Notes: generated by a model not told the origin, from the letters alone. A stretch of 64,000 nucleotides of DNA from Trypanosoma brucei (GCA_000002445.1 CM000207.1:2176001-2240000), one strand, 5' to 3'. Counted from the stretch's first letter, positions 7,049-64,000 are shown. Translations and numbers: made by a program.

Positions 7049-10000
7049 CTAGCAACTCTCAGTGACACGCGTATTTACCTCCCGCTTAATGCGTTCCAAG
7101 TGACCCAGTATCTCGATCTTCCAGTTGCTGCTACTCTGCACAGCACAGTTTACCCCCGTCATGTCACTACTGCAGCCAAAAGCGTCCTCCTCACTTCCTA
7201 CACTTCCACTGCCTACACATTCGGGCGCGGCCACCAGACGCTGCTGCACAACTTTCCACCGGTCGGAATCCTCACGATGCCATTCAACGACACTCGCCGA
7301 CACCTCTCGAACAAGTGCCATTGCTGCATCATCACTATAAACATTGGTGGTTGCCTCACGCATTACACATGGATATGCTGATGCGCCTTCGGCAACAACA
7401 GGGGCTCTGGAAAGCGTTGTGTCCATCCGCAGGCAAACGTTGTCAACGAATCTGGCGTATTCTTCACCCACGATGGAATGCAACGCGTGTATATTACTTT
7501 TGTCAACTTTGTTAAGGTGCCAAATCATCAAAAGTAACACCCCGACTTCGACTGTATCTCCTCTAGTAACGGCGTTGCCGAGGTGAAAAAGAAGAATTCG
7601 TATCGTTCTCGGCCTATTCTCGTTGGCCTCCAACACCTGCCTAAGCGCCACGGGTTTCAACTTGCCAAAAGCTTCCGTTGTTGTCAGGAGCATGTAACTC
7701 AGATGATCACGCGTCTCGAAGAGGCGGCTGTATTCCCTCATGCGCATGCGAACCCACGAATCGTTTCTAACGGCTATGGCATTAATGCAGTTCACAATGC
7801 TCAACACCAATGGAACGGGAGGTGGGGAAAGGATATCCTCGATGCTCCGAAAGAGGAGGTCGAGATTCTGTACGATGTTCATTGCTTCTGCACGGTTGCT
7901 AAACCCGTGGTGATTCAACGCAAAGTGTGAAGCAATATCTTCGAGGATAATCCTCCTGAAAATAGTCGGATGTCTCCCCCGAACGATATCGCGCACAACA
8001 CCGGCGCTGGAGTTGCAACCAAGGTCCCGTATGGCAAGACGGGTGGCCGCGCGGCGAATACGCTTCTCGATACCGGCGAATATCCGTGGCCTCTGGGATG
8101 CCAAAAGGCCTTCGCCGGTGTAGCTGCTTCGTGAAGTCGGACTCGCCATCACGTGCTGTATCGAGTCCCACAGTAACGTCAACCACGGGAAGGTCAACAG
8201 CATTTCGCTGCTCTTGGGACAACCCACAATTTTCTCAATGTAGGTTAGCACCCGAAGGGCAACTACGGCCGGTGACTCACGCTCTCCGCAGACTGAGGAG
8301 GAGGAAGGGATACCGGTGAACGAACTCCCACGCTGGACATTACCCTGCCCAGAAACAGCGAACGTGAACTCCCCCGTAACGACCGCCGCGTCCAGTATGT
8401 CCTCACAGGATTCTTCCATGTGGTTATTCATGTTCTGAAGCAGACACTCGAGGAGGCGAAGAAGTGGGTAGATCACCTGGGGTTCCCGAAGTACACCCTC
8501 ACTGTATGCCCGGACACGGGACAACTCATGAACCTCGCACAGTTGATACTGACTACAGTCGCCTCCAGAACCCTCACAGAATGATCCAAAGCCGTACTCC
8601 CGCCGCGCCATGCGCAACGGCTGATGAATCAGGCAGGGCAAATAACCTTGCGAGCCAACCACATGCAACCGTTTTTCGGTTGTTGATACACCAGCAACTT
8701 CATGAGGTAAATTGTCTCGTCGACTCCCCAAGGACGCAGTCCGTATTTGTCTTGCCCTTTCAAGGCCGCCGCTTGCTGCGGGTAGGAATGCTCCAAATGC
8801 CATTTGAAACAAGCAGTTGAATGTGGCCATACCAATGGGAACACATGCGGCTTCAGGGCCGGCCATCACAGCGGCAAGTACCTCATACCCCCGGCTATTA
8901 ATGAATTTTTTGTGGGAATCCTCCCTGCTGTGAAGAATCAGAGACAGAATGCGAAGCGCTAACACCCGAATAACCTCACTACCATGACTCTTCCCCCCAG
9001 CCAACAATATCAGGAAGGAGGCGCCAGTGTTGTCAAAAGCACTCTCAATCAAGTCACATACAGTGGTGTCAGTGCGCGCGATGTCAAACAACATATGAAG
9101 CACAACCGCCTTTACACGTTCATGCGTTTTGCTAACGGCCTCAATCAACAGAAATTTCAACACTTGTTCAATCTCCCGCGGTTCCTTGCACAACCTTTCC
9201 ACAAGAACGATCAGATTCCCCACACATTCTAGAGGAAGAGACACGCTCATATTCAGTAAGCGCTCAAAACGACCGGGGACCAACCGGAATATTGCAACAT
9301 TCTCTGGGAAGAGGAGTGTATCACTAAGTTCGCGCAACAAGCACGATGCATCGTGTGGTCCAAGCCCCCCTCTATCAACGAGATCGAGCATCAGAGAGAG
9401 AATGCTTTGCGTGGTATCATGGTTGCGCATTATCTTTCCACCGCGCGGGATGGTACAGGATATCAGGAGCGCGGGTACATCAACTGGCATATGACGCCAG
9501 GAGAGCAATGCCCCTCGTAGCCGCTCAATAACACCCCCATCTATGATCCGGTCGATGCCCCCGTCTATCGTGGATAACTTCATTGTCGTGCAGAGGAAGC
9601 GCACGCATAGCCTGGCAACTACGGGAAAACTCTCCGCAGCTGCCCCGGCCCCCGCCACGGTCCGAACCGCCCAACCTGCCACATCATGGTGCGCGAAGAT
9701 TTCACCCATATTTGGTGGCAAAAACGTAGTCAAATTTGACACAGACAAGTTCTGGGGTCGCTGCCTGATCTCATCAACAACCTTGATAATGGGAACATCC
9801 TCCCCGAAGGAAACTCCGCACAGCACGTTCAACGGAAGGTAACACGACGCCGCCGCTTCAGACAGAGACTTTGGGCCCAAATCGTACAATTTCATGACCT
9901 CCTCCATCGTTAGCGCACGGTCCAACAGCTCCATGCTCGCGGCAAAACCGAAGAATGAAGGGACACCAAGAACTCCACCAAGAGAAATTTTCACCACCTT

Positions 10001-12175
10001 CTCCTTTGAAACGGCCTCATAGGTGTCATGGGGAAAGCGCACCTCCACCCGACATCCGTTGACGCACACCGTAAAACCTGCGGGATGCTGCGTGAAGACA
10101 ACATGGGACCATGTATCAGCCTGAAATGAGACACCAGGTACCTTAACGTTCGTTACCTCTTCGAAAATACGGAACCGAACCACTAAACCACACAACCGGC
10201 CGTTGGCCACGATTACCAGGGTCACTGACACGCCACATTGCGCATATTCACAGCAAAATAGGGGGCTCCCCTCACGCCACACGCACTTCGGGTGCAACCA
10301 CGAGACACAAGTGTAGGTTGAAAAGAGGCTGCCAAAACGGTCCCAATCAAGACTGCACCTTATGCAACTGGCGCCAGAAAAGTACAGCGCACCCCGAGGA
10401 AACGAAGTGCAGCCGAGTACGTGCAGAAACGACTCTACGATGTTAACATCAGCCGCTAACACGCGTTGCGAACACATTTTCCCCACCCCATCCATGAGCC
10501 TCTTCATCACTCTCTCATTTGCATGGAGTGATGTGAGTAGGTTCAGCAGAGCTACAGAGGCTTCAATTGACCGAGCACTCAACGGATGGATCGTGCACGA
10601 CAAGACACTCGGAGACTCCGCACAGGAAAAAACACTCTCCTCATTGCTTGCAATGCATGCCAAGAGAGCGTCAATAACGGGGCCCTCTGCAAGCACCTTG
10701 GCGTTCTGGGGTGCGGCCGTGCAGAGCAACGCAAGTGTGAAAATCACATATCGATAGATGCAATCTGTAATATCTCCTCCTGAGTTCACACAAAGTAGGG
10801 CTTCGGCAACGAGTGAACAGCCATCCCCTGTGAGTACGCAGTCAAACAGCAACGAAGCCAACTGCCAAACACCCGATGACTCGCCCGTCATCAGCGTCTC
10901 CCAAAATGAGGGAAACGATTCAACAGCCCTGCCGGTGGGTCTAACAACCGCCAAATAACTCATGGAAGGAGCCAGAGATGAAAACGTCGCAGCCAGTGAG
11001 GAAGTCTTTGGGTATATCACACTGTCGGCAATGGTACCGTGACATTTAAGGCTTCCAAAGAAAGTCTCCCTGCTGCGGGAGAAACTGTTGGTTGCTGCGA
11101 CCTCGACTAGAACGTCCACGAGCACAAAAACCCACGTTTCCTCACTTCCAATGATAGGACCGGCGGAGCCTCCTGGGTTACTCGTTGGCATTTCCATCTC
11201 AAGACGAAGGTTGTGCAGACTCGATGCTGTTCTGACCCACGCCGCCATGAATTTCTCACGATGTCGACTGCGACACATCGCCTTGCTCTCCGCGCAGCTG
11301 CGTAGTACAACCTTCAGCAGATCGAAATAAGCCAGGCATCCCGTTAACCGTATCCCACGAATATCCTGTTCCCCAGTGGCATCTCCAGCGAGAGCTGAAC
11401 ATGTGCAAATAAGGTCGGACAGGAAGGCATCTCCGTCGCGTTGAAAGAGGGAGACCTCTTCTTGCCTCGCGCCGTATTCACCGCGGGAAATGGCAGCAGC
11501 GAGAACTGAAACCAAATGCACTTGCTGGGGCACAACCGAAAATACTCTTCCTTCCTCACTACACTTCAGCAGAAGCGAACGGGAAGCGGAAACGCCTTCC
11601 CCCAATAGTGCCGCGTTGTATCCCATAACGTCCGCCAACGCTGTGGAGAAGGCCTGCCGCATCTTCTTGCTCAATGGAACGTGAACAAAGAACTTCATCA
11701 TATGCGTTACGATGCCACGCTGAGAAAACACCTTCGCGGCACCTTCACCAATCCTCTGAAGAAGCTCTGACAGCAGTCTGGCGCATCCTATCAATGCCGA
11801 CTCACCAACATCCCTCTGCTTGTCGCCACGTGTACCAGGAGCAGATGGGGTTGACAAAATGTAAGGCGCGTCACCTTGGCGGTGTGCAGGGTGAGAACCG
11901 TTTCCACCATATTCTGCATGCTCAGCGGTCGTTCCACTACAACAGTTAAGCTGCGAAACAAGTTCTTCACTGAAACTTGTCACCCACAAGTCAACCGTAC
12001 GCAGGTCTATGGACGCTTGCCTCCGAAAACAGTCCTCAAGCGTTTCTAAGGTCGAAAAAAGTATTTTTTGTTGAGATTGCGCCCCAAGCTGAGGAAATGA
12101 CATGGCTCGCCGCACTCCGCTGACGGCCTGCCGTGCTAAAAAGAGCAGATCCTCTTTGCTCAGTGACCTCATCAT
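7049..12175 (-). CDS. Large conserved hypothetical protein (1708 aa) with helical repeat-like regions. An internal segment resembles a ConA/LamG-like beta-sandwich.
   Basis: 5.1-kb uninterrupted ORF on the same strand as its neighbours. The internal stretch ...VTLVIVANGRLCGLVV...VFTQHPAGFTVCVNG... is beta-rich, the rest is helical. Confidence 0.55.
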   Translation of the reverse strand: MMRSLSKEDLLFLARQAVSGVRRAMSFPQLGAQSQQKILFSTLETLEDCFRRQASIDLRTVDLWVTSFSEELVSQLNCCSGTTAEHAEYGGNGSHPAHRQGDAPYILSTPSAPGTRGDKQRDVGESALIGCARLLSELLQRIGEGAAKVFSQRGIVTHMMKFFVHVPLSKKMRQAFSTALADVMGYNAALLGEGVSASRSLLLKCSEEGRVFSVVPQQVHLVSVLAAAISRGEYGARQEEVSLFQRDGDAFLSDLICTCSALAGDATGEQDIRGIRLTGCLAYFDLLKVVLRSCAESKAMCRSRHREKFMAAWVRTASSLHNLRLEMEMPTSNPGGSAGPIIGSEETWVFVLVDVLVEVAATNSFSRSRETFFGSLKCHGTIADSVIYPKTSSLAATFSSLAPSMSYLAVVRPTGRAVESFPSFWETLMTGESSGVWQLASLLFDCVLTGDGCSLVAEALLCVNSGGDITDCIYRYVIFTLALLCTAAPQNAKVLAEGPVIDALLACIASNEESVFSCAESPSVLSCTIHPLSARSIEASVALLNLLTSLHANERVMKRLMDGVGKMCSQRVLAADVNIVESFLHVLGCTSFPRGALYFSGASCIRCSLDWDRFGSLFSTYTCVSWLHPKCVWREGSPLFCCEYAQCGVSVTLVIVANGRLCGLVVRFRIFEEVTNVKVPGVSFQADTWSHVVFTQHPAGFTVCVNGCRVEVRFPHDTYEAVSKEKVVKISLGGVLGVPSFFGFAASMELLDRALTMEEVMKLYDLGPKSLSEAAASCYLPLNVLCGVSFGEDVPIIKVVDEIRQRPQNLSVSNLTTFLPPNMGEIFAHHDVAGWAVRTVAGAGAAAESFPVVARLCVRFLCTTMKLSTIDGGIDRIIDGGVIERLRGALLSWRHMPVDVPALLISCTIPRGGKIMRNHDTTQSILSLMLDLVDRGGLGPHDASCLLRELSDTLLFPENVAIFRLVPGRFERLLNMSVSLPLECVGNLIVLVERLCKEPREIEQVLKFLLIEAVSKTHERVKAVVLHMLFDIARTDTTVCDLIESAFDNTGASFLILLAGGKSHGSEVIRVLALRILSLILHSREDSHKKFINSRGYEVLAAVMAGPEAACVPIGMATFNCLFQMAFGAFLPAASGGLERARQIRTASLGSRRDNLPHEVAGVSTTEKRLHVVGSQGYLPCLIHQPLRMARREYGFGSFCEGSGGDCSQYQLCEVHELSRVRAYSEGVLREPQVIYPLLRLLECLLQNMNNHMEESCEDILDAAVVTGEFTFAVSGQGNVQRGSSFTGIPSSSSVCGERESPAVVALRVLTYIEKIVGCPKSSEMLLTFPWLTLLWDSIQHVMASPTSRSSYTGEGLLASQRPRIFAGIEKRIRRAATRLAIRDLGCNSSAGVVRDIVRGRHPTIFRRIILEDIASHFALNHHGFSNRAEAMNIVQNLDLLFRSIEDILSPPPVPLVLSIVNCINAIAVRNDSWVRMRMREYSRLFETRDHLSYMLLTTTEAFGKLKPVALRQVLEANENRPRTIRILLFHLGNAVTRGDTVEVGVLLLMIWHLNKVDKSNIHALHSIVGEEYARFVDNVCLRMDTTLSRAPVVAEGASAYPCVMREATTNVYSDDAAMALVREVSASVVEWHREDSDRWKVVQQRLVAAPECVGSGSVGSEEDAFGCSSDMTGVNCAVQSSSNWKIEILGHLERIKREVNTRVTESC

Positions 12176-12757
12176 CCGTCAATAGAAAAAGGGAGGGAAA
12201 GAAAGTGACGGTAAGACGCAAGCCACGGGGCGAAGAGGGACCACACTTTCCCCTTTGGGTGTACCTGGTCCTCCCCTTCACTCTCGCTATTAATATATAT
12301 ATAAAGATACCCGCCACTGGAGTGTTCCTTCCCTAGCCCTTCAACCTACTTAACAGGGCACTTTCTAAACCCTTCTCAAGCAAAGAATGTGTTCACAAGA
12401 ATTCAAGCAAAGGGAGTGTAAAGACAAAAAGGAGGGGTTAAGTAACTCTAGCAGGCACATTTTCGGAGGAGACAGAGTAGAGCGGATGTCAAAGATTTTT
12501 TAAAAAGAAAAAAGAAGACAAAAAACAACAATGGCAGCAATGGATGCGTTCAGTACTTTATGTGCCTATCTAGCAATGTGAAAAGGATCAAGGAAAGGGC
12601 TCTAAAATAGTCTAGTGAGTCTCCTAGCGATCTGTCTTTTCTCACTCTTCCTTATCATTCTTCATAATCAGCCCCCATCCATGTCCAGAGGGGCATGGTC
12701 GAAATAATGGCATGGCAGAAAAAACGTGGGATCTATAAAAAATATCGCTCTACCGAA

Positions 12758-14164
12758 CTAAAACATTGCACAGCATGGCGATGACTTGGGACGCCTCTGA
12801 TTAGGCAGTGATGCACACACCATATCAGATCCAGTATACGTTCCCACTGAGCGGCCACTGCCGCGACAAGCTGCACCGTCTTGAGAAGGCATGTTCTCAC
12901 CAGAATGCCGCGCGTTGCTCCGCTGACTGACAACACGGGAGTTCTCAGTGGTCACATCCCTCATCTCCTCTAGGGAGGGAATGGACAGTACCCTCCAACC
13001 GGTATGCGTCTCATTGGTGCGGCCGGTGAAGCCGCTGGATCCCGGGGGCCACTCCTGCGTCCCCTCGGGGCCCCTCGTACTCTCCCTTGCAACTGGAAAT
13101 GCCGAAAAGGCAGCCGTTGTAGAATGCGGGTCCAAGTGCAATGCTCCGACCGGCATTTCAGCGGAACCCTGCTGATATGCATTAGGAGCATAGGGTGATT
13201 CCATTGCGTCCTCCATCGGTGGTGGGGAATAACCCGGATTTGTCGACACAACTTGAGACGGGGGGGATTCGAAATGTGCGACACTTGTTGCTCTTGTGAC
13301 GGCACCGCTCAGACAAGGAGAGGGAGCAGTCGTTTTGGGAGGCGCAATGCCTCGGGACGTCCGCTCCTGACTGCTAACAAGTCCCTCGAGCACACCTGGA
13401 AGGGGTGAAGGCTCCCGCTTCCTCCCCTCAGCAAGTGGTTGACGGGCCTCGCTGACAGCAGAAGTACTGGGACTCCGCGGAGCGGTGGCGTGCGGTGGGG
13501 CCCCTCTTGCCCTCGAACTGTCACCACTCATCTTAGATTCCGCCACAACCGTTTTTCTGCCCTTGTCGGTTGCACCTGATGAACGAGAATGAGGTGGGAA
13601 GTCCTGTCCACTGATCCTCGATGACTCCATAAACCTGGACCTGCCGCTCGACCGCTTGGACGAGACGACTGGATCCACAGGCTCCCCGTCGACGGCCAGG
13701 CACTTCATCAGTAGTTCCTCCAAGTCACGCAGCTTAACGATGTTAGTACCGTGAGGATCCAAAAAGTCTATGATAGCCTCTGCTTCACAAGATGTTAATT
13801 CTGACGCAGCCGAGGTCGCGAGGATTATGCGGAATTCAGTTCGGCTTAGTTCCCCATTGCCCCGAACATCAAAGGCATCCCTGTAGCACTTTATGGTGGC
13901 GTCATCAAGCGCCCTCGTCCCCTCGAGCATAGCACACATCTGAAGAAATAACGGATATGTCACGCGGCCACACCACCCAGTGGTAACGGAAACGACCTGT
14001 TGCAAGTAGTGAGCAGTGGGATAGTAACCCATCTCGTGTGCTGCTGCCATAACAAAGCACGGTGGAATGAAAGCATCGCCATCAGGTGCGACAATATGAA
14101 AGGTGTTGAAAACGTCCCCAGCCATTGCCTTAATCACACCTGATCCCCTCGCTGAGGCGGTCAT
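12758..14164 (-). CDS. EF-hand calcium-binding domain protein with a long S/P/R-rich disordered C-terminal tail
   Basis: EF-hand loops DAFDVRGNGELSRTEF and DFLDPHGTNIVKLRDLEEL. Start placed at the internal MTASARG. The upstream part of the raw ORF crosses a (TA)n/purine-rich UTR-like tract. Confidence 0.5.
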   Translation of the reverse strand: MTASARGSGVIKAMAGDVFNTFHIVAPDGDAFIPPCFVMAAAHEMGYYPTAHYLQQVVSVTTGWCGRVTYPLFLQMCAMLEGTRALDDATIKCYRDAFDVRGNGELSRTEFRIILATSAASELTSCEAEAIIDFLDPHGTNIVKLRDLEELLMKCLAVDGEPVDPVVSSKRSSGRSRFMESSRISGQDFPPHSRSSGATDKGRKTVVAESKMSGDSSRARGAPPHATAPRSPSTSAVSEARQPLAEGRKREPSPLPGVLEGLVSSQERTSRGIAPPKTTAPSPCLSGAVTRATSVAHFESPPSQVVSTNPGYSPPPMEDAMESPYAPNAYQQGSAEMPVGALHLDPHSTTAAFSAFPVARESTRGPEGTQEWPPGSSGFTGRTNETHTGWRVLSIPSLEEMRDVTTENSRVVSQRSNARHSGENMPSQDGAACRGSGRSVGTYTGSDMVCASLPNQRRPKSSPCCAMF

Positions 14165-14410
14165 TGGGAAGAATACGTAGATATATATATATATGTCAAC
14201 TATACACAATAATAAGTGTTCAACGAGCCGAAGAAAAAAAAAGAAAAGAAAAGGGAAAGAAGCTATGCAAGAGCCTCCTGCTTCAGCGCGGCCATCCGCA
14301 TTCAAGACACTTCACCAGAGCAAAGAAATACACGGGTCAGCTGGAAAAAAAAGGATAAACAATAAGACTAATAAGAATAAACAATGTATCTATCGGGTGT
14401 CGCAACATCC

Positions 14411-16393
14411 TCATAGAAGCTCACGGTGTCTGGCAATTTGCTCGTCTCTCAACCTAATTGCCTCCTGCAGTACGCTAATCTGCTCCGTTTGTGCTCTTAG
14501 AGTGTTATCCTTCGTAGCAAGCGCCACAAGCACTCGCTCGTTAATGCTCGTCAATTCAGCATTATGCTTTTGTTCTATGCTTCGTTGCTCTAAAGCGGCT
14601 GCGTTCTTCACAGCCTGGAGCTCTATGGTGACTTTCTCCAGCTCATGCTGCATGGCACCCACTTCCTCCACGTGTTTGATCTCAAACTGACGCAGTTTTC
14701 GCTGCCACTCCGAATCTAGCACATGCATCCTTGCCTCATCCTCAGCTCGTACTTTCTCCTGTATCTCCTTCACTCGCTGATTTGTTAAGTCCGAGGTTTC
14801 GCGCAAACGTGACATTTCTTCCTCCTTCCGTCCAATTTCCTCTACAACACTCCTCAAATTGCCCTGCAGCAGCTCGACTTCCGCCCGAAGCCGTTCATTT
14901 TCGCGACCCATCTGCGCACAGCGGTCGCGGAGGACGCTGTCGGCCCCATGTGATTCCATCAGGGTCTGTAGATGTTGCTGCTCTGCGCGACGGGTAACCT
15001 CTGCAACAGCGGCATCACGCTCCGCCTCGAATTTATGCCGTAACTCTTCCTCGCGAGCGGCCAAGTACTGCACATTGTACGCCTTCGTCTCTTGCTCCCG
15101 TCGGCTGAACTCCAGCATAAGTTTCTCTTTGAGGTCAGAAACAATCTGGTTCGAGTTGGCCGTAATGTTCGCTACCTCCCGGGCTACCTCATCATGTATT
15201 TTTGCCTTTTCCGTTGCAGCGGCTTCACGTAAAGTGAACACCTCTTTTTGCAGCTGTGAAATTTCGCGCTGCATCGTATTCTTCCGGTCTTCTGCAAATA
15301 TCTCCAAATCGTCGTGCTTCTGCTTAGCGAGGCGCCGCTCCTCCTCCAACTGGCGATTCACGCGGTCCATCTCCTCCTTGAGTCGATCCCGGAACTCCTG
15401 TTGCTCTCGAGCCCGAGTTGCAGATGCCTCACGCTCCAACCGCGCCCTGGACTCTTCGAGTGTCGCCTCCTTTGCCGCAATAACCTCATCCCGCTGTCGT
15501 AGTTCGTTCTCGAACTCTTCCCGCATACGCGCCTTTTCCGCCTTGTGCCTGTTCAACAACAACACGATATCAGGCTCTAACGACTGGAGGGTGTTCTCCT
15601 TTATGCGTTTCGCCTCGGCTATCCTCCACTTCTCGCGAGCAGCCTTCTCCTGAGCTTGCCACCGGGTCTTAAGTTGCGCTATGGCGGTCGCGTTCGCAGA
15701 CTCAAGTCTGGCGATCTCCTCCTCCCGCCGAGACATCTCTTGCCGTAGTTGAGACGTAACAGACTCCACTGCCTGGGTCAACTGCGACCTTTCGCGCTGA
15801 AACTCTTGCACCACGCGTTCGTAGTTGCGCTCCGTCTCCCGTAGCTTCTTGCGGAGCCCTTCCAGCTCGTTGCGAGCCGCGGCTTCCTGGCTTCCAAGAC
15901 GCTCCGCTTCCCTCTCCCGCGCCATCTTGACTCGCTCCTTCAGTTCTTCGTTTTCAGCCCTCAGCTCATCATTGCTGAACTGTAAGGCAGATATTTTAGC
16001 CTTGATACCGTGGTAAACATCGCTGCGAACGTCGGGTCCACACCCTATTATGTGCGACGTAAGACATGAAGCCGAACCGCCAAACGGTGGTAACTGCGTA
16101 GAAGGCTGTAGTAGGGCAGCCGACGGTGCCAACGCCACACCACCATCCGAAATATTTGCTGGCATGTATACGTCACGGCACGCTGAAGGGCCAAATGATG
16201 CGGGAAACGGGGGTCTCGTAGAAACAACGTCATCTAGGTATGAAAGAATGTTCGACACCTTTGCCTCGTTAAGCTCCCTGAGGTCGGAAAAAACACTACT
16301 AGTCGCGGTTCCTCCACCCCCTGCCGTCAACCCCAACCCACCAGTTCCTGACATATGTCCAACTGGAACCCTCAATCCCTCACACACATCCAT
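14411..16393 (-). CDS. Coiled-coil protein (660 aa, E/R/K/Q/L-rich heptad repeats)
   Basis: Continuous ORF with a very long charged helical heptad region (for example ENEELKERVKMAREREAERL...). The antisense S/R-rich ORF 14859..15653 is a compositional mirror artefact. Confidence 0.5.
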   Translation of the reverse strand: MDVCEGLRVPVGHMSGTGGLGLTAGGGGTATSSVFSDLRELNEAKVSNILSYLDDVVSTRPPFPASFGPSACRDVYMPANISDGGVALAPSAALLQPSTQLPPFGGSASCLTSHIIGCGPDVRSDVYHGIKAKISALQFSNDELRAENEELKERVKMAREREAERLGSQEAAARNELEGLRKKLRETERNYERVVQEFQRERSQLTQAVESVTSQLRQEMSRREEEIARLESANATAIAQLKTRWQAQEKAAREKWRIAEAKRIKENTLQSLEPDIVLLLNRHKAEKARMREEFENELRQRDEVIAAKEATLEESRARLEREASATRAREQQEFRDRLKEEMDRVNRQLEEERRLAKQKHDDLEIFAEDRKNTMQREISQLQKEVFTLREAAATEKAKIHDEVAREVANITANSNQIVSDLKEKLMLEFSRREQETKAYNVQYLAAREEELRHKFEAERDAAVAEVTRRAEQQHLQTLMESHGADSVLRDRCAQMGRENERLRAEVELLQGNLRSVVEEIGRKEEEMSRLRETSDLTNQRVKEIQEKVRAEDEARMHVLDSEWQRKLRQFEIKHVEEVGAMQHELEKVTIELQAVKNAAALEQRSIEQKHNAELTSINERVLVALATKDNTLRAQTEQISVLQEAIRLRDEQIARHRELL

Positions 16394-54565: not shown

Positions 54566-55181
54566 CGTTTTATATCTCCTTTTAATACTTTTTGACGTAA
54601 AATGAGACACCTTTCCCTTAACTCGATGAGGGGAAGCTTATTGCGAAAGAGGAAGAAAACTTTGAGACTCTAATAACACAGAAAAGTCAACACTTAATGA
54701 GTATCTGAGGGACGAGTAATAGTCGAAAAAAGATTTTTTTGCTTTGCTTTATTCACATGATTCCCCCCTCAAAAAAAAATAATACCTTATTCAGGGACTT
54801 GGTACTTGCTTGCAATTTAATTTAAGTATTTTGTTTGTTCTTAGCGACTTATCCCGTAAGGGAAGACGCTACTTCAAGTTGGGTGCTCCACACGAATTCC
54901 GAAACGCTAACACAGTGTCGGCAAACTGCGGCAGTTTGTGCATTTCGTTGGAAGAGAGGAAATTCGTCAAAGTTTTAACACCTTGATTGTGCGCGTGAAA
55001 GAGTCGTTGCGAGGGGGAAAATACGGTATCCCCACACACACACCAAAAAACAGTAAGGAAAAAAAAAAAAGAAACATCCCATAAAACATTCTTTTTCTCT
55101 TTCTTACAACTCAAAGTAGACACAGAGCATTTGTCAAAGACATATTCAAACAAGCTAGCATACGATTTCTGCTCTGGAGGG
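54566..55181 (+). repeat. Direct repeat copy 1 (about 615 bp) flanking the oxygenase gene
   Basis: About 98% identical to 57124-57735. Both copies end at CTCTGGAGGG and contain an A-run and CACACACACACC. Confidence 0.85.
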
Positions 55182-55515
55182 CGCATTTGGCTCACTTATT
55201 AAATCCATAGAAGCACTGATACAAGAACGTTATCTAACGCGTCTCAGGTGCGAAAGCACACTGCCTCGACATTTTCGTAGTAAGATCGAGGGGAATTACC
55301 GCTACTGCAGGGTTGAAAAGGCACCCTTCCGCGTAAACGGTGGCAAAAGGGAAGTCAGCACCGTGCGGACACGTCTAAGGCTGGAGTGGTAAGCAATTCA
55401 CGTAAGTGGAAGTTCGTCACATAGGATCGAACAAGGTACGAAGGCCGAACCAACTGGACATACGGGTGCGCATCATCCGGTAAGATACTTACAAGCCAGG
55501 GAGACAGCGAAGAAA

Positions 55516-56499
55516 ATGTATTCTGCTACGCCGTTCATGACACCGCGTGCTTCGTTGCCGGTAATCGATGTCTCGCCATTGTTTGGGGGCGCGGAGCAGG
55601 AGATCATGAAGGTTGCCAAGCAGTTGGATCACGCGTGCCGCACTTCAGGATTCCTCTATGTCGTTGGTCACCCTATTAAACAAGAGCAGATCGATAGGGT
55701 ATTGCAAATTTCGAAAACTTTCTTTTCCCTTCCAATGGAAGAGAAGATGAAAATTGATGTCAAGAAGGGTTTCCTAAAATACAGAGGATATGTCCCCTTC
55801 GGAGCTGAGGAACCAGAGCATGCCAAAACCTACTCATATGAGGCGTTCAACATGGGATATCACCTGCCCCTACACCATCCTGAAGTCATGGCACGGGCCC
55901 CCCTACGCGGACCAAATGTGCACCCCACACAAGTTCCGGAGTGGGTAGACATCATGGAAACCTATTTCCGCGATATGTGGGCATTCATGCTCGTTCTACT
56001 TCGTGCCATGGCGCGAGGTATTGGAATACGTGAAGATTTCTTCGACGACAAGTTCAGCGTACCACAATGTGAGCTAACTGTCAAGCATTATCCCGAACCA
56101 AAAACACACGCGAATGGTAACACTCTGCGGATGGAGCACTCTGATTACGGGATTATCACTATTCTCTACCAAGATTCCACGGGAGGATTGCAGGTCCGTA
56201 ATCCTGACGACAAACTCGTTGATGTTCCACCCATTGAAGGAAGCTTTGTCGTCAACATTGGGGATATGATGGAGATGTGGACTAATGGGCGGTATCGTTC
56301 AACCAAGCACTGCGTTGTGTCCAGAGGAAAGGAACGGTACTCCATACCTTTCTTCTGTAACCCGAATCCGAACGCTTTGGTTAAATGTCTCGACAATTGC
56401 TACTCGGACACTAATCCACCGAAATACCCACCAGTCAAAGCTTCTGACTGGTTGCTGAAAAGATTGGCGGATCTCTATTCTTACAAATCGAAAATGTAA
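55516..56499 (+). CDS. 2-oxoglutarate/Fe(II)-dependent oxygenase of the iron/ascorbate oxidoreductase (isopenicillin-N-synthase-like) family, 327 aa
   Basis: Facial triad HSDYG (H-x-D) ... RYRSTKHCVV (distal His). RYSIPFF (2OG-binding RxS). N-terminal DIOX_N-like region. Length is typical of IPNS-like dioxygenases. Confidence 0.8.
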   Translation: MYSATPFMTPRASLPVIDVSPLFGGAEQEIMKVAKQLDHACRTSGFLYVVGHPIKQEQIDRVLQISKTFFSLPMEEKMKIDVKKGFLKYRGYVPFGAEEPEHAKTYSYEAFNMGYHLPLHHPEVMARAPLRGPNVHPTQVPEWVDIMETYFRDMWAFMLVLLRAMARGIGIREDFFDDKFSVPQCELTVKHYPEPKTHANGNTLRMEHSDYGIITILYQDSTGGLQVRNPDDKLVDVPPIEGSFVVNIGDMMEMWTNGRYRSTKHCVVSRGKERYSIPFFCNPNPNALVKCLDNCYSDTNPPKYPPVKASDWLLKRLADLYSYKSKM

Positions 56500-57123
56500 G
56501 TACACCAGAGCCAAAATGACTGCCCTGTTAGTGGTGGGGCGTCCGCTCTTTATCTTGTCTCATGGCTGGAGAGAAGGAACCACCATTATATACCTGCCGC
56601 CCTCCCTCTTCACTTCCGGCATTTGCATCATCAGCACGACGCGATTGGACAACGCCGAAACCCCTGTAAAAACTAGGTTGACTCGAACCCGCTACGCTTC
56701 CGAGGCTCGACAGGGAAATGGTGGAAATCAAGAGCCCCCGCGAAACCGAAGACCTAGCTGGTGTTGGCCTGTTCAAGAAAGTCGGTTTGAGGGTGCTGAT
56801 AAAGAAAATATAATGAAACTACTGCCAAAAAACTGGGTGAAGCATAGCGGATGACAGTAATCGAAATAGAAAATTTTCTTGGCTAAAGATGGGCGTTGAA
56901 GAATATGCCACATGCCAGGAAAAATAACAATCTGAAGGGTGAATTATCCAATATTGTGTAACATCCCTGGAAATGGTCACGAAAAAAGCCAAATGAATAT
57001 GTGGTTATATTTTAATAAAACCCACGGTTTCAGAAAACACAGATAAGAACCGAATGTAGTAAAACAAAGATACTCCAAAATAGGGAAACAAGAGGAAAAA
57101 CAATCAAATAATCCATTTGTCTG

Positions 57124-57735
57124 TTTTTATATCTCCTTTTAATACTTTTGACGTAAAATGAGACACCTTTCCCTTAACTCGATGAGGGGAAGCTTATTGC
57201 GAAAGAGGAAGAAAACTTTGAAACTCTAATAACACAGAAAAGTCAACACTTAATGAGTATCTGAGGGACGAGTAATAGTCGAAAAAAGATTTTTTTGCTT
57301 TGCTTTATTCACATGATTCCCCCCTCAAAAAAAATAATACCTTATTCAGGGACTTGGTACTTGCTTGCAATTTAATTTAAGTATTTTGTTTGTTCTTAGC
57401 GACTTATCCCGTAAGGGAAGACGCTACTTCAAGTTGGGTGCTCCACACGAATTCCGAAACGCTAACACAGTGTCGGCAAACTGCGGCAGTTTGTGCATTT
57501 CATTGGAAGAGAGGAAATTCGTCAAAGTTTTAACACCTTGATTGTGCGCGTGAAAGAGTCGTTGCGAGGGGGAAAATACGGTATCCCCACACACACACAC
57601 CAAAAAACAGTAAGGAAAAAAAAAGAAACATCCCATAAAACATTCTTTTTCTCTTTCTTACAACTCAAAGTAGACACAGAATATTTGTCAAAGACATATT
57701 CAAACAAGCTAGCATACGATTTCTGCTCTGGAGGG
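57124..57735 (+). repeat. Direct repeat copy 2 (about 612 bp)
   Basis: Near-identical to 54566-55181. Spacing of 2,558 bp suggests a remnant tandem gene-unit duplication. Confidence 0.85.
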
Positions 57736-60249
57736 ATTGTTACAGTTGTGCGGCGAAGGAGGGACGACGCCGTAGACTGAACTGTTGGCGGAAATGCACC
57801 GTTGGATTATTTGGGGTTGAAGAGGGCTCTACCGAAGTGTGACGGAGGAAAAAAGCTCACTCTGTTTCACACAGTTGTCGGGGAGCGTGCCCTGACGACG
57901 TCACACGGCGGGGGCAGAGACGGCGAAGGAATTTGCTGCTGCTTACTCATGGAAGGTGTGGCATGCATATGCTCGATAAGGGAGCTGTGCGAATAGCGGT
58001 AGGTCACAGCGCCTGCAGTTACAATTCGGGAGATTCCACAATACTTCTGCGTGGGCCGAACTGAAGATATTTTCTGACGACGCCGGTCACAAACGTGGCG
58101 TCACAGTTCCGCGCCGGTGGTGTGTGTGGGGCGCTGCGAACCAGCATATGGTTTAGTATATGAAACTGGATGGGCGGACAGCCGTCGAGCACCGGGGGGA
58201 AGGGGGGAGGGCGCTGCAGATTCATTAGTTCTCGAGTCGGCGAGTATCCATGTGCCCCGTTGTTGTCGACGGTGAAAGGTACCGCCAAAAGGAAAGAATG
58301 GTAATGTTTGAGGATTTGTAAGCTGAGGTTTGCACTTTGCATTTCAGGCACTGCAGTGGTACTCGCGGGTTGATATGTCGCGGCATTCATCCACTATGCC
58401 AGGAGGAAGCGATACGGAGGCTAGACAGCTCCGTTTCTTATTCGGGTGTTTTTCCTCTGATATTAATATTGATTCATGTGTGCTACAGTACCCGGAATCC
58501 TTGGGTCAGGAATCTGCAGCGTTTCAGTATCCCCTGTTGGTATAGATTCAGACGCTTCAGTCCATTACATTCCATTCCACCTCAGTAACTAAATGCAAAC
58601 TTCATCCTGGTACACACTTTCTCCCCTGTACTTGTGTGAGAAGCGCCCATAGCTTATTTGGTTGTTGGTCTGCTACGGTGAGATGGGTCTACTTCCGATG
58701 CCATGAAGGGAAACAGTGAGTCGGTGATTATCAAGAGTGTAGTCGATAAAGTTGCATACGCTGGGAGAGCATACAGTGTCATTTCCACATTAATTTCTAG
58801 TGCCATGGATTCTGTTGCCACTGCGTACTAATGGGGCTGCACGTGCCTACTCGACGACTATCAGTTTATTATTTTTGCATATTGTCGTAACGGCCCCATA
58901 TTTTCCTAACAATAGAAATCTCTTGGTCCATCATCCGTGGTACATGCGTGGGGTCATAAATTTGGTGAATGTCAGTGTCTGCATCTTTCGCGCATACAGT
59001 GGCTCCTAAATCCGCTCCACGGTCGGTATTCCACAGTGAGTGTATTAACGCGCTACCGCCTGCACAGTTGCAGGCTGTCCGGCGTCGGTAGCGGCTGCCA
59101 ACGCTGAGATATTCTACTTGCGCAATTGTTACTCTAGCCCAAACGTGGGCGCAGGGTATCACAATCACAGATGCGAGTGCTTCACAGAGCGGACCAGTGG
59201 TCTTTTCCTGTGGAACGTGGTTAAACTCCATTGATAACCCAGTGTTAGAACTTTTATGGGGCTCTTTACATGAGGGGACAGAAGTGTTTTTTTTTTTGTG
59301 CGGCCGATCATGGTACTATGCGTTCCTGAAAATCGGAAAATGCATAACGGTGTGTCGGAAAGACGCAACTATTCCCCGTGGAATATGGTATCCTTGGCGG
59401 AAAGCCCAAAACGGTTTTCTTCCAGAAATCGCTGCTGCTTGATGATACCCCCTTAACATTAGAGAATATGGAAATCATATGAAGATGTTCTTCTGATCGA
59501 CGTGGTGAGGTTGTGAAAGAGCGGTAAAACTTGTGTGGAAGTCTCAAAGCGAACGTGAATGCAGCAAAAGAAGTGGTGCGATTCACCACTCTTAGCCTTT
59601 GTGCAGGATGACGCATATCTTCCTGCTTCCTAGCTGTGCAACTCATGGAAGTGCTTTCCTCAGTGTGGAAGCTTATATACCTCTTGTGACAAGTCATAAA
59701 AAAAATTTAAAGTGAATCCTCAACAACAATTAAGAAAAAATAAAGCATTTATTTACACGGAGTGATTTGAAGACCAGTATCATGCACACTGTGTGTCGTC
59801 GAGGGTAAATAACCAATTTAAAAGATTCGCGCCGCGTTCGGTTTCCTCGTAACATTTATCACCCCCCAGCACGTAATGACATTTCTCAGGAACGGGGCTC
59901 ATTACGTCCCTTCCAGCTTTATAAGCAACTACGTTTCATTACCGATAACATTATCCCAAGGGGAGAGCCACCAACAATAAGAGCTTATCCACACAAAAAG
60001 TGAACAAAGATTACCTACGCAACACCGCGTCCCATGGGCTGTTAACAAGCCCTGTTCTCTACCACCATCATGCACAAAGGGCATCATTCACTATCATCCC
60101 TAACTTACCTAGGGTAGGAGCGCTCCTTCGGTATTCCTCCGCCCACCTCGATACAGCGTAAATTCACTACCCCCTCAAACCAAACTTCTGCAACAACACA
60201 CTCTACATTTCTCCTACAACCTCATGATTAGATTCATGCCTTTGCATGT

Positions 60250-60261
60250 TAAAAAAAAAAA
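60250..60261 (+). other. A12 tract, probable 3' poly(A) of a retroposed or retroelement-derived insertion abutting the SL gene fragment
   Basis: aaaaaaaaaaaa immediately followed by SL exon nucleotides 15-39. Confidence 0.5.
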
Positions 60262-60306
60262 TTAGAACAGTTTCTGTACTATATTGGTATGAGAAGCTCC
60301 CAGTAG
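60262..60306 (+). pseudogene. SL RNA: Spliced-leader (SL) RNA gene fragment: mini-exon nt 15-39 plus the first 20 nt of the SL intron. Truncated at both ends.
   Basis: TTAGAACAGTTTCTGTACTATATTG|GTATGAGAAGCTCCCAGTAG matches the T. brucei SL 3' portion and splice-donor/intron start exactly. The first 14 nt (AACTAACGCTATTA) are replaced by poly(A). Similarity stops after intron nt 20. Confidence 0.7.
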
Positions 60307-60688
60307 GAATTATCCGTACTTGGGGTCAATATTCGGGAAGAGGAAGAAGTAAGAAATCGCTGCATTTATGATATCGATAGGAAAGGAAGGAAAACCTCAA
60401 AACCAAAAAAAGTCTTGTTTTGGGGGTTCGAACCCGGACCTCCAAAACACAAACACAATTAGAAGAGGAGTGTTGCCAGTTGGGCTATTTCGACAAATCG
60501 GAGGAAAAATTGAAAATTTATGCCCAGATGAAATATACCAAATCGTACACATCGAAGAGAAAAAACATAGGTGTACAAACGGTGCACACGTAGAAAAAAG
60601 TAGCGGAATTGATAAATCTCAGGTAAATAAGCCCATTACAGAAATCAGGTGATCAGTTTCTTTCTTGGGACAGAATATCGGGAGGTTT

Positions 60689-63600
60689 GATGTCAAAAAG
60701 TCACCCGAAAATGAATATTTGGAAAAAATCAACTGTGGTCAAATCGACATAACGACCACAAAAAATTGTCGCTACGAAGACTTCCGTAGCGCATTTGAAA
60801 GGGCTCGACCAGCCCAATGCATGAGTAACAACGGTTACTGCAACAAAGAGGTCGCCAAAAAATTAGGTGCAGTCGAACCTAATATTTTTTCAAAAAATGG
60901 AAATTTTGAAAAAATTAACCGTGGTCAAATCGACATGACGACCACAAAAAATTGTCGCTACGAAGACTTCCGTAGCGCATTTGAAAGGGCTCGACCAGCC
61001 CAATGCATGAGTAACAACGGTTACTGCAACAAAGAGGTCATAAGAAAAATAGGGGCGGTTGGAAAAGAAAAATGCTCAAAAAATAAGGAAAAAGAGCAAA
61101 TTTCGCAGGCCGACAAAAATGATACACATGGTTTCTACGCAGACTTCCGTAGCGCATTTACACGGAATGGACGAGTAGAATTAGGCAATAACAACGGTTA
61201 TTGTCATAACGAAGCGACAAGAAATATAGAGAGGGGGAAAAAGCCGAAAACATCAAAAATTGATGAAAAAAGGCAAATTTCCAACATTGCAGCTGGTCGA
61301 AAAAGTGATCACTACGAAGATCCGAGTAGTGCATTTTCACGAATTTCAATAGACCATTGCAATGCTCAAATAAAAATTGGTCGCAAAAAAATGGTTAGAA
61401 ACTTGAGGTCATCTGAATCTCAAAAAATTTCAAGGTTCCCAAGGCACCATGGGGAAGGAAAAAAGGTGTCTCCTCCGGCTTTGAACCTGCAGTGGCCAGG
61501 ACAGAAGCAGGTAGCGTCGGCAGTTGCGCCACAAATTAGAAAAATCGCGACACCGAAAAACAACAACACAAGCATCCAACGGAACTGTAGGAAACACCTT
61601 AGGAAAGAAGGTGATTGGTGGATAGTAGAGGGCGGGCAAAGCCACAAGAAAGCCGCCCATACCCCTCTCAAAACGAAACCGGTAAATAAGGAGGGGAACC
61701 GGAAGAAGTACGGCAGACCACCGCGTGAGGTAGAAGGGAAATGGCTTACCTCCCTCATTGCGGCAACGACTGAGGCCGTATTACGCCAACTGGGGAAAGG
61801 AAAATCCCCAACAGCCCACACGAAGTCGAACCAGAGTAGAGTCCCGCTGCAGCACTCTGAGAAAACGGCTAAGGGCATCAAACACGCGACGCCCCAACCA
61901 AAAAAGAAAGAACATGAGCAGCGGAAAGAGCTCCCCCGTCGGCCCCCAACCAAGAGGAGCCACGGCGCTAACAAAGGGCAGGGAGCACCAGTAAGAGCCC
62001 CTACGAAGACACAAGGGAAGGGGGAAGAACAACCCCACACAATGCGAACATGGGCACAGGTGGCAGCACCGAGGAAACCAAAGGTGACAAGTAAACCACC
62101 CATGGCTCAAAAAAAGGCACAGGGGGAAAAGAAAGGGGCAGCGGCCAACCCCTTCCACTGGGAGCTACAGGTGGAGCAGCTTCTCAAGGATGCGGAACAG
62201 ATACGCGAAAGCATGTACATCCGCTTTCTCCACGTTCGGCAGAGTTGGTGGAGCACATGCTTCAAGGCCCACATGGAGTTCCACTGCCCAGTGTGTGGTT
62301 TCGCGCACCCGGAAGAAACCATAACAGTAACACACTGCAGGCAGCAACACCCCCAGGAGGGCCGCCTGATTCCCTACACCCTGACAACAACAGGGAATCA
62401 GGTGCAGTTCGCAGGTCCCTCCTGCTCACTTTCGGCGGTGGTGGCTATCCTCTCACATATGGAGGAAGAGAAAAATTTCCACCCTATTATCCGCCGAAGC
62501 TACCAGTCCCCGAGCAAGGAGACTACCCAAACGCTCGTTCAGGCATTGGGACTGGAGCTCCCCACAGCCCCCATCACTGCGATAGAAGCGCTGGCCCACC
62601 ATGACCAGATGATCCGCCAGCTGTTGGAGGCACCCGCAACGACGGCACGACAATGCGGGCATTGTGGGGTAAGTGAGCTAATGGAAGGGCCTTCCAACCC
62701 CGGGGAAAATTTGGGGATAATCTCCATAAACCCCAACACATGCGAGTCGATCGAGCTGACGAATCAGATCCTCGCGAAGACATATACGACCTCCTGGACA
62801 GATATGGAGGTCGTATGCACGGGGGAACGGAAGAATATGGCCCACCGGCCTACCCCGACGTTGATCACCCACTCCAAGACGTTCGGGGAAATGGTGGTCA
62901 TCGATATTGGAACGTGGGGGAACGAAGCGGTGGGTTTGAAACGCATCCTCCACGAGATCCTGTTACCCCACGGGAACGGCACGGCAACATACAAACTCGT
63001 GGGCGCCGTGATCGCACCAACACCGTTCCACGTGGTAGCGGCAATACCTCAACAGACCAGGAAACGTCGCTGGGATATCCTGGATGGTATGGTCCGCCGC
63101 ACCGTGAGCCAGAGCACTGTCGACCCAAAAACTGTGGTCATGTGCGTGTACCGTCGTGAAGAAGAAGAAACATACGACGTACTAGACGAGGAGGAGCAAG
63201 ACGACGACCTCCTCGGTATCCCCAACCCCACGCCACGGCGATTGATGATATCACAAGCCGGTCCACAGCAAAACTCATGGGTGGACACACGGGGCAGGAG
63301 GGCATACGGCTCACAGGAGGAACAGGATGAGAGGACATCGACAGATCAGGTGAGTATTTTCTCCCACGACGAAACACGGGAGTTATCATCACCACTGGAG
63401 TGTCCTATCGTAGGATGCACCGCGAGTTTCGTGGGCCCACGCAGATGGGAGAAGGCCAAATCCCATATATACGGGTTCCACTCGCTGGAAGAGGTCCGCG
63501 AAATCCCGAGGGGGGAGCTTATATGTAAGGGGATAGTAAGATGCGAGACTTGTGCCACGCTCCTCCCTACGTCGGACAGAGCGAAACAGGCACACGCCGA

Positions 63601-64000
63601 CGATTGCAGACCCTATCTCCCGCGGAAAGAAAACATCCGCCGAAAACGGGCCGCTGAAAGAGAAGCGACAGAGGCGAGCGCACAGCAAGGAATAGCGCTA
63701 CGCCTCGAGCGGCAGGGCCCGTACATAACTCCCCGCGACATAGAGGAGCCCACCAACACGACGACGGAAAGTTGGTGGAGGGAGAAGGTAGCTACGAAAC
63801 GCTACCTTCACAGAAAGGAGTGGCCGCAGTGGCTTGACATCTGCCGCACGGTCCTCCTCGGATACTCCGCGTCATCACAAGGCGAGCGGCACCAACGCCA
63901 AGTGATGCTCCTTGATCTGGTCCGGAATCATCTCCACACGCGCACAGCCAGGCGCGAGCAACAGCAGCAACGTGGAAAGGATAACCAGGAAGAGGAGGAC
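60689..64000 (+). CDS. Partial (3' end beyond window) long ORF. N-terminal tandem repeats of about 57 aa, a K/R/P-rich basic linker, and a C-terminal region with C2H2-like Cys/His motifs. Candidate retroelement (SLACS/CRE-clade-like) or novel zinc-finger protein.
   Basis: I walked frame 2 by hand from a stop at 60650-60652 to the window end (64000) without meeting a stop, giving at least 1,116 codons. The ORF track does not list it because it has no terminating stop inside the window. Motifs: FHCPVCGFAHPEETITVTHCRQQH, ECPIVGCTASFVGPRRWEKAKSHIYGFH, ICKGIVRCETCATLLPTSDRAKQAHADDC. The coding strand is strongly purine-rich and T-poor. Confidence 0.45.
60721..61380 (+). repeat. Tandem repeat array with a unit of about 172 bp: two near-perfect copies and two degenerate partial copies
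   Basis: GTGGTCAAATCGACAT(A/G)ACGACCACAAAAAATTGTCGCTACGAAGACTTCCGTAGCGCATTTGAAAGGGCTCGACCAGCCCAATGCATGAGTAACAACGGTTACTGCAACAAAGAGGTC occurs at 60737 and 60909. Diverged copies at about 61130 and 61304. Confidence 0.85.

Follow-up and report, generated by a model that had tools for sequence, protein, structure and literature searches.

Why should a fragment of a spliced leader (SL) RNA gene, headed by a run of adenines in place of its first nucleotides, stand beside protein-coding genes on chromosome 9 of Trypanosoma brucei? The question is raised by a stretch of 64,000 nucleotides (nt) from T. b. brucei TREU927 chromosome 9 (GCA_000002445.1, CM000207.1:2176001-2240000), hereafter the window. 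An initial annotation took the place to be an orphan SL copy, far from any SL array, struck by a poly(A) retroelement on its upstream side and afterwards cut short by unrelated insertions; as a second option it named an SL-containing fragment that had itself been retroposed. Our analysis shows that the 45-nt SL piece belongs to the target site of a SLACS retrotransposon, which it flanks on the 5' side and which starts at 60307, and we propose a history for the junction on its other side.

The SL fragment and the SLACS element that follows it

SL nucleotides are numbered here from the genuine SL repeat units of T. equiperdum contig QSBY01000017.1 (L001), which are 1356 bp long and begin AACTAACGCTATTATTAGAAC...; features of the window are on the + strand unless stated otherwise. 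Positions 60240-60310 read CTTTGCATGTT-A11-TTAGAACAGTTTCTGTACTATATTG-GTATGAGAAGCTCCCAGTAG-GAAT.... The 45-nt sequence TTAGAACAGTTTCTGTACTATATTGGTATGAGAAGCTCCCAGTAG occurs once, at 60262-60306, and none of 100 shuffles matched it. It is identical to SL exon nt 15-39 (60262-60286) followed by SL intron nt 1-20 (60287-60306, nt 40-59 of the SL RNA) of the L001 units, so that the exact match reported initially holds, with 0 mismatches. The exon part can equally be described as nt 12-14 plus 18-39, one TTA of a TTATTA having been lost. SL similarity ends past intron nt 20. The preceding A-run, given before as 12 residues, counts 11 (60251-60261), a length found in SLACS tails (canonically A11-A12). 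It does stand in place of SL nt 1-14, as had been noted: these nucleotides and the SL promoter are absent from the window, and neither the full 39-nt exon, its first 18 nt, nor promoter-proximal sequence was found anywhere in it with up to 3 mismatches allowed.

A functional SL RNA gene would need all 39 nt of the exon, its promoter, and an entire intron closed by a terminator; the window has exon nt 15-39 and intron nt 1-20 and nothing else of it. A processed, retroposed SL RNA copy is not matched either, as the A-run lies 5' of the SL piece on the SL-sense strand and the piece ends at a SLACS junction and not at the RNA 3' end. Rfam cmscan gave no match over 56-64 kb, but a complete SL gene likewise has no Rfam match, so that this negative carries no weight. 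Three identities fall away for the fragment: a functional SL gene, a processed copy of SL RNA and the tail of a retroposon upstream. It cannot produce SL RNA.

The ends of the fragment were compared with canonical SLACS junctions read directly from L001 and from a second T. equiperdum sequence, CM010680.1 (L004). At the canonical 5' junction (L001), the SL promoter and SL nt 1-59 are followed by GAATTATCCGTACTTGGGG.... Window positions 60287-60330 are identical to this T. equiperdum junction, with SL nt 59 followed by GAATTATCCGTAC, and ...CCCAGTAG|GAATTATCCGTAC is the canonical junction at L001 7784-7866. The right end of the fragment, at intron nt 20, is a canonical SLACS 5' junction. The abrupt end noticed there at the outset was correctly placed, but it is not the mark of an unrelated insertion. 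At the canonical 3' junction (L001 and L004), the SLACS 3' end, ...GGGGCAGTT, closes with GCAGTT and carries its tail in the form ...GGTCGGGGCAGTT-A11/12-TTATTAGAAC..., that is, SL nt 12 onward and the remaining SL gene. PMC5814959 places SLACS/CZAR insertion between SL nt 11 and 12, in agreement with these junctions and with the annotation. Insertion at this point, combined with a left flank that reaches nt 59, implies a 48-nt duplication of SL nt 12-59; a literature search for a 49-bp duplication found nothing relevant, and the length counted here is 48 nt.

The left end of the SL piece has the form of a SLACS-type 3' junction, with poly(A) of tail length at SL nt 12-15 after the SLACS-terminal GTT. 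The window reads ...GCATGTT-A11-TTAGAAC against the canonical GCAGTT-A11/12-TTATTAGAAC, and on this point the first interpretation was sound. The GTT (60248-60250) consists of the same three bases that close the SLACS 3' untranslated region (UTR; ..GCAGTT-An) and is kept in all four assemblies; to judge from its sequence it may represent the final bases of a SLACS copy that was truncated, or may be there by coincidence.

The element itself, a retrotransposon without long terminal repeats, occupies 60307-64000 with about its first 3.7 kb and extends past the window end. Its 5' UTR spans 60307-60820 and its 186-bp tandem repeats 60708-61084. The annotated open reading frame (ORF) runs from 60821 within a frame that is open from 60653 to the window end (1116 codons), with 56 codons lying beyond. 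This frame is 100% identical over 1060 amino acids to TREU927 XP_827643.1, "SLACS retrotransposable element (part), putative", which is 56 residues longer than the part in the window. The translated segment 62102-64000 is 99% identical to proteins named SLACS from T. b. equiperdum and T. b. gambiense, and the DNA is 96-98% identical to several copies in L001. Pfam found no domain in 60821-64000, the window part stopping ahead of the reverse transcriptase (RT) region; in a full-length T. equiperdum copy, RVT_1 is found further downstream (E = 1.6e-17). The element matches SLACS both in its identity to described elements and proteins and in the joining of its 5' end to an SL gene after SL RNA nt 59. 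The intact SL promoter and +1 of the canonical context are missing upstream, with no SL nt 1-14 or promoter-proximal sequence in the window, but this is a property of the context and not of element identity. By every testable criterion the sequence from 60307 to 64000 and beyond is assigned to SLACS (CRE clade), and this copy is already annotated in TREU927. It is also the only SLACS at the locus, lying immediately downstream of the SL piece and not upstream, where an element had been expected.

Two further features of the element were observed. The sequence GGTTCGAACCC at 60425-60435, in the 5' UTR, resembles a tRNA T-arm or RNA polymerase III B box and is kept in SLACS copies of T. equiperdum and T. 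b. gambiense DAL972; neither ARAGORN nor Rfam reported a tRNA at this motif. The published 45-kDa SLACS ORF1 protein (T. b. gambiense, P0002) switches frame after ...THCRQQHP, while the TREU927 copy (60653-64000) is open in one frame, and window ORF 62245-62604 is the counterpart of the tail that the protein has in its alternative frame. A frameshifted copy or an error in sequencing may lie behind the former division into two ORFs.

Orthologous loci and the left edge of the SL array

Three orthologous loci were reached via the small ORF at 58019-58390 (- strand): T. equiperdum OVI (L002, a 13-kb contig), T. b. gambiense DAL972 chromosome 9 (L003) and T. equiperdum CM010680.1 (L004). DAL972 and CM010680.1 both read flank-GCACGTT-A13/A11-TTAGAAC...CCCAGTAG|GAATTATCC, and SLACS is present in both. 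In CM010680.1, from a long-read assembly, the edge SLACS is about 6.1 kb long with a 1401-aa ORF, and its 3' end, GCAGTT-A12-TTATTAGAAC, is followed by SL units about 1358 bp apart. In DAL972 the edge SLACS is interrupted by a 100-N assembly gap, with SL repeats beyond. The gap lies at L003 3446-3546 and is followed by lower-quality SL spacer, leaving the transition from SLACS to array unresolved in the DAL972 reference.

Because the edge SLACS of CM010680.1 leads straight into SL repeats, the locus can be identified from its ortholog as the left edge of the chromosome 9 SL array, and the fragment as the SL unit that opens the array, truncated at its 5' end. The site is no orphan. Nor is it far from any SL array, since SLACS follows the fragment directly and tandem SL repeats follow the orthologous SLACS. 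The same evidence bears on ectopic retroposition, in which a read-through or dimeric SLACS transcript with A(n)-SL12-59 at its 5' end would have been reverse-transcribed into a non-SL site. SLACS transcripts reportedly include upstream SL sequence (PMC3447711), and the left flank is indeed non-SL DNA; however, the CM010680.1 element ends in poly(A) joined canonically to SL nt 12, and from there the sequence runs on into the SL array. As that element sits in the array and not at an ectopic site, we give this explanation only the slimmest chance. Retroposition of an SL-containing fragment, as first suggested, meets the same difficulty at the 3' end, and the A-run is moreover on the wrong, 5' side of the SL piece.

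The A-run/SL junction recurs with A11 in T. equiperdum OVI and GCA_003543875.1 and with A13 in DAL972. Since the same junction is found in DAL972 and two T. equiperdum assemblies, it is real and old. As far as the assembled sequences tell, the left boundary of the SL array is shared by the T. brucei subspecies compared (TREU927, DAL972 and T. equiperdum).

The OVI contig has the same flank-GTT-A11-TTAGAAC and continues as uninterrupted SL intron (CAGCTGGGCC...TTTTT) to its end, with no SLACS. Two readings fit this structure: an allele free of SLACS, or an assembly of short reads that took a path through the 45 nt in common. The former is just the product that recombination between the two SL copies on either side of the element would leave. 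The SL intron at the OVI edge (L002 60-115) reads GCATTTGTGC...GGTTCCCGCC, and that of SL units in the other T. equiperdum assembly (L001 2420-2450) and in DAL972 reads GCATTGTGC...GGTTCCTGCC, a difference that stems either from SL variation among strains or from divergence of the promoter-less copy at the edge.

Origin of the left junction

The chromosome 9 flank to the left of the array (57736-60247) is neither SL spacer nor SLACS, and its single ORF is the one at 58019-58390. Sensitive blastn, and tblastn with all SLACS frames, found no similarity between the flank at 57.7-60.25 kb and the SL spacer or repeat or full-length SLACS, and the upstream 8-10 kb has no SLACS similarity at the DNA or protein level; on these searches we reject a degenerate SLACS upstream of the A-run. 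The flank shares no repeat with the remainder of the window, the sole repeat nearby being a 616-bp direct duplication around an oxygenase gene, and a RIME or other repeat ahead of the A-run is unsupported by this within-window comparison. No poly(A) retroposon body (ingi, RIME, SIDER or SLACS) was found before the A-run in a comparison that covered SLACS and repeats within the window. Nowhere in the window is there a further SL start to act as a duplicated target, upstream of the A-run or elsewhere, and the complementary 5' part of the SL gene is likewise missing. With SLACS, SL-spacer similarity, a shared repeat and a target copy all wanting upstream, no element body is attached to the A-run.

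These results weigh directly on the model of an orphan SL copy hit by an upstream poly(A) retroelement. That model drew on the A-run abutting SL nt 12-15 as in a SLACS 3' junction. It also drew on the want of an RT-sized ORF in the upstream 4 kb, which was taken as the sign of a decayed element and which our analysis confirms (no long ORF lies in 56.5-60.6 kb). The 8-10 kb upstream, however, holds no SLACS similarity, no repeat other than the 616-bp oxygenase duplication and no duplicated target, the supposed downstream truncation is a canonical SLACS 5' junction, and the locus is an array edge. We find the model scarcely credible.

With the SL piece established as the 5' target flank of the edge SLACS, the best explanation of the left junction, and in our view a probable one, is that it is the scar of an abortive target-primed reverse transcription. 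SLACS inserts by this process: its endonuclease nicks the bottom strand at SL nt 11/12 and, on the top strand, the site that follows nt 59, and an inserted copy is therefore flanked on the left by SL sequence up to nt 59 and on the right by poly(A) and SL nt 12 onward. A resident SLACS would have been in place first, its 5' flank (SL nt 1-59) keeping the bottom-strand nick site at 11/12 while the top-strand site at 59/60 was destroyed by the element. A later nick at 11/12 would then have primed reverse transcription of little beyond the SLACS poly(A) tail, and normal integration would not have been completed. The result would be an abortive or extremely 5'-truncated insertion at a duplicated half-site, with the A11 run as its scar. 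In repair, the short T/A tract would have been linked to chromosome 9 DNA of unrelated sequence, and SL nt 1-14 would have been lost together with the SL promoter and whatever SL units lay beyond it to the left.

A second A-run junction of this kind, A(9-11)-SL nt 12-59-SLACS, is found in L001 and lends this history support. The normal SL spacer of this contig reads ...GCAAATATAATTATAC... and has no such A-run; at the second junction the spacer is broken after GCAAATATAA (position ~335) and is followed by A-run-TTATTAGAAC...nt 59|SLACS. About 1 kb of target is missing, and a full-length SLACS lies further upstream.

It could be argued that no reverse transcription took place, and that the A-run belonged to the chromosome 9 flank from the start, the SL gene having been broken near nt 14 by illegitimate recombination. 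Runs of at least 10 A are not rare, with 10 on the + strand of the 64-kb window, and the breakpoint misses the canonical nt 11/12 site by 3 nt. Against this, chance would put a break so close to the SLACS nick site (within 3 nt, in a unit of 1356 bp) in only ~0.5% of cases, an A-run of exactly SLACS-tail length has a frequency of ~1.6e-4 per position, and the second A-run-SL nt 12 junction arose where the normal spacer has no A-run. Since there are only ten such runs in 64 kb and the A11 run is the one that falls within 3 nt of the SLACS-specific site, chance coincidence is very unlikely. Recombination with a native A-run accordingly merits little credence.

The other competing history begins with a tandem pair of SLACS elements joined by a 48-nt linker of SL nt 12-59, of which the upstream member was later deleted, with all that lay to its left, except for its last bases and poly(A). 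A(n)-SL12-59-SLACS is the exact linker expected between tandem insertions, and the GTT ahead of the A-run matches the SLACS 3' end. This history demands a deletion endpoint only ~3-7 nt from the poly(A) start, and the same again independently in the second example; a trace of the SLACS 3' UTR is also missing upstream (blastn, tblastn). We consider it unlikely.

Several points nevertheless weigh against an abortive insertion. What a tandem pair reduced by deletion would leave behind is indistinguishable from a 5'-truncated insertion. The left junction begins TTAGAAC, but the 3' flank of the CM010680.1 element begins TTATTAGAAC, so that the two are 3 nt apart and a slipped nick or the loss of TTA is needed. 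The GTT shared with the SLACS 3' end is only 3 nt long. The abortive step is itself deduced from structure only. If the SLACS-free junction of OVI is real and ancestral, truncation would have preceded SLACS insertion and the proposed order would be wrong. The second example comes from a single long-read assembly, where it falls within one arm of an inverted repeat of 3.35 kb, and an assembly error is possible. Finally, the window ends inside the element, and the TREU927 3' junction is beyond 64000.

Transcription, neighbouring genes and comparison with known systems

SLACS transcription reportedly depends on the SL promoter. PMC3447711, citing Patrick et al. 2008, places the start of transcription at +1 of the interrupted SL gene. 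The edge copy has no SL promoter or +1 of its own. Because these are missing, and because the neighbouring leucine-rich repeat protein and oxygenase genes are coded on the + strand, it would be transcribed only via read-through from that upstream gene cluster. If the A-run is indeed a scar, this promoter-less copy could add non-canonical SLACS RNA to the small interfering RNA (siRNA) pathway. A separate observation concerns the inverted repeat of L001, where two SLACS 5' halves (7799-11140 and 11250-14592) face each other over ~3.35 kb, 96-100% complementary, around a 109-nt centre. It could be an artefact of long-read assembly; if real, it would give a hairpin RNA of the SLACS 5' half only. 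The siRNAs are reportedly restricted to the SLACS 5' half (PMC3447711).

If the A-run is a SLACS scar, SLACS would delete SL units recurrently, as the second A-run-SL nt 12 junction, with its ~1 kb of missing target, suggests. A wider reading would combine this with the A-run as a SLACS nick scar in front of a resident SLACS, with SLACS activity as the maker of the left boundary of the SL array, and with a read-through edge copy that may feed the siRNA pathway. We offer this combination tentatively and regard it as doubtful as a whole.

SLACS copies in SL genes have been known since 1987, and an annotated copy in its known target in a reference genome is ordinary biology. No description of a body-less poly(A) scar at an SL-array edge was found in the literature searched, and the scar is a minor structural detail. 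Its interest lies in the edge of an essential gene array, that of the SL RNA, being set by a retrotransposon junction that the T. brucei subspecies share. SLACS also restores its own nick site through the 48-nt duplication, and together with the conserved edge junction this could provide a testable route to SL-unit deletion or to promoter-less copies.

The surroundings place the locus firmly in TREU927. The oxygenase at 55516-56499 is 100% identical to XP_827640.1 and the ORF at 58019-58390 to XP_827641.1 ('hypothetical, unlikely'), and both proteins come from the same 3.06-Mb TREU927 record; window 57125-60306, which includes the flank, is collinear with T. equiperdum OVI at 99%. The 616-bp direct repeats (54568-55181 and 57125-57735, 98% identical) bracket the oxygenase, an iron/ascorbate oxidoreductase gene. 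OVI has one copy of the repeat and is without window 55182-57124, and so without the oxidoreductase gene, and in DAL972 and the second T. equiperdum assembly the distances between genes point to the same arrangement. The TREU927 protein is the only member of its 90% cluster, and its nearest non-kinetoplastid relatives are Pseudomonas oxygenases (~47% identity).

Set beside a functional SL RNA repeat (1.36-kb unit), the fragment is identical over 45 nt and differs in having no promoter, +1, cap-proximal nt 1-14, Sm site or terminator, with SLACS interrupting it after nt 59. The element agrees with known SLACS in sequence, in its 5' junction after SL RNA nt 59, in its 186-bp 5' repeats and, in the ortholog, in its poly(A)/SL nt 12 3' junction; in contrast, its 5' flank lacks SL nt 1-14 and the promoter and is capped by an A-run joined to non-SL DNA. 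Among other target-primed elements, R2 and L1 are known for 5'-truncated ('dead on arrival') insertions and for insertion-associated target deletions. The left junction differs from these in its extreme truncation (0-3 nt plus poly(A)), in the nicked site being a duplicated half-site before a resident element, and in a mechanism that we infer. By analogy it would nonetheless belong beside them, with poly(A) placed where a specific endonuclease nicks, hardly any element body or none, and loss of the target on the 5' side.

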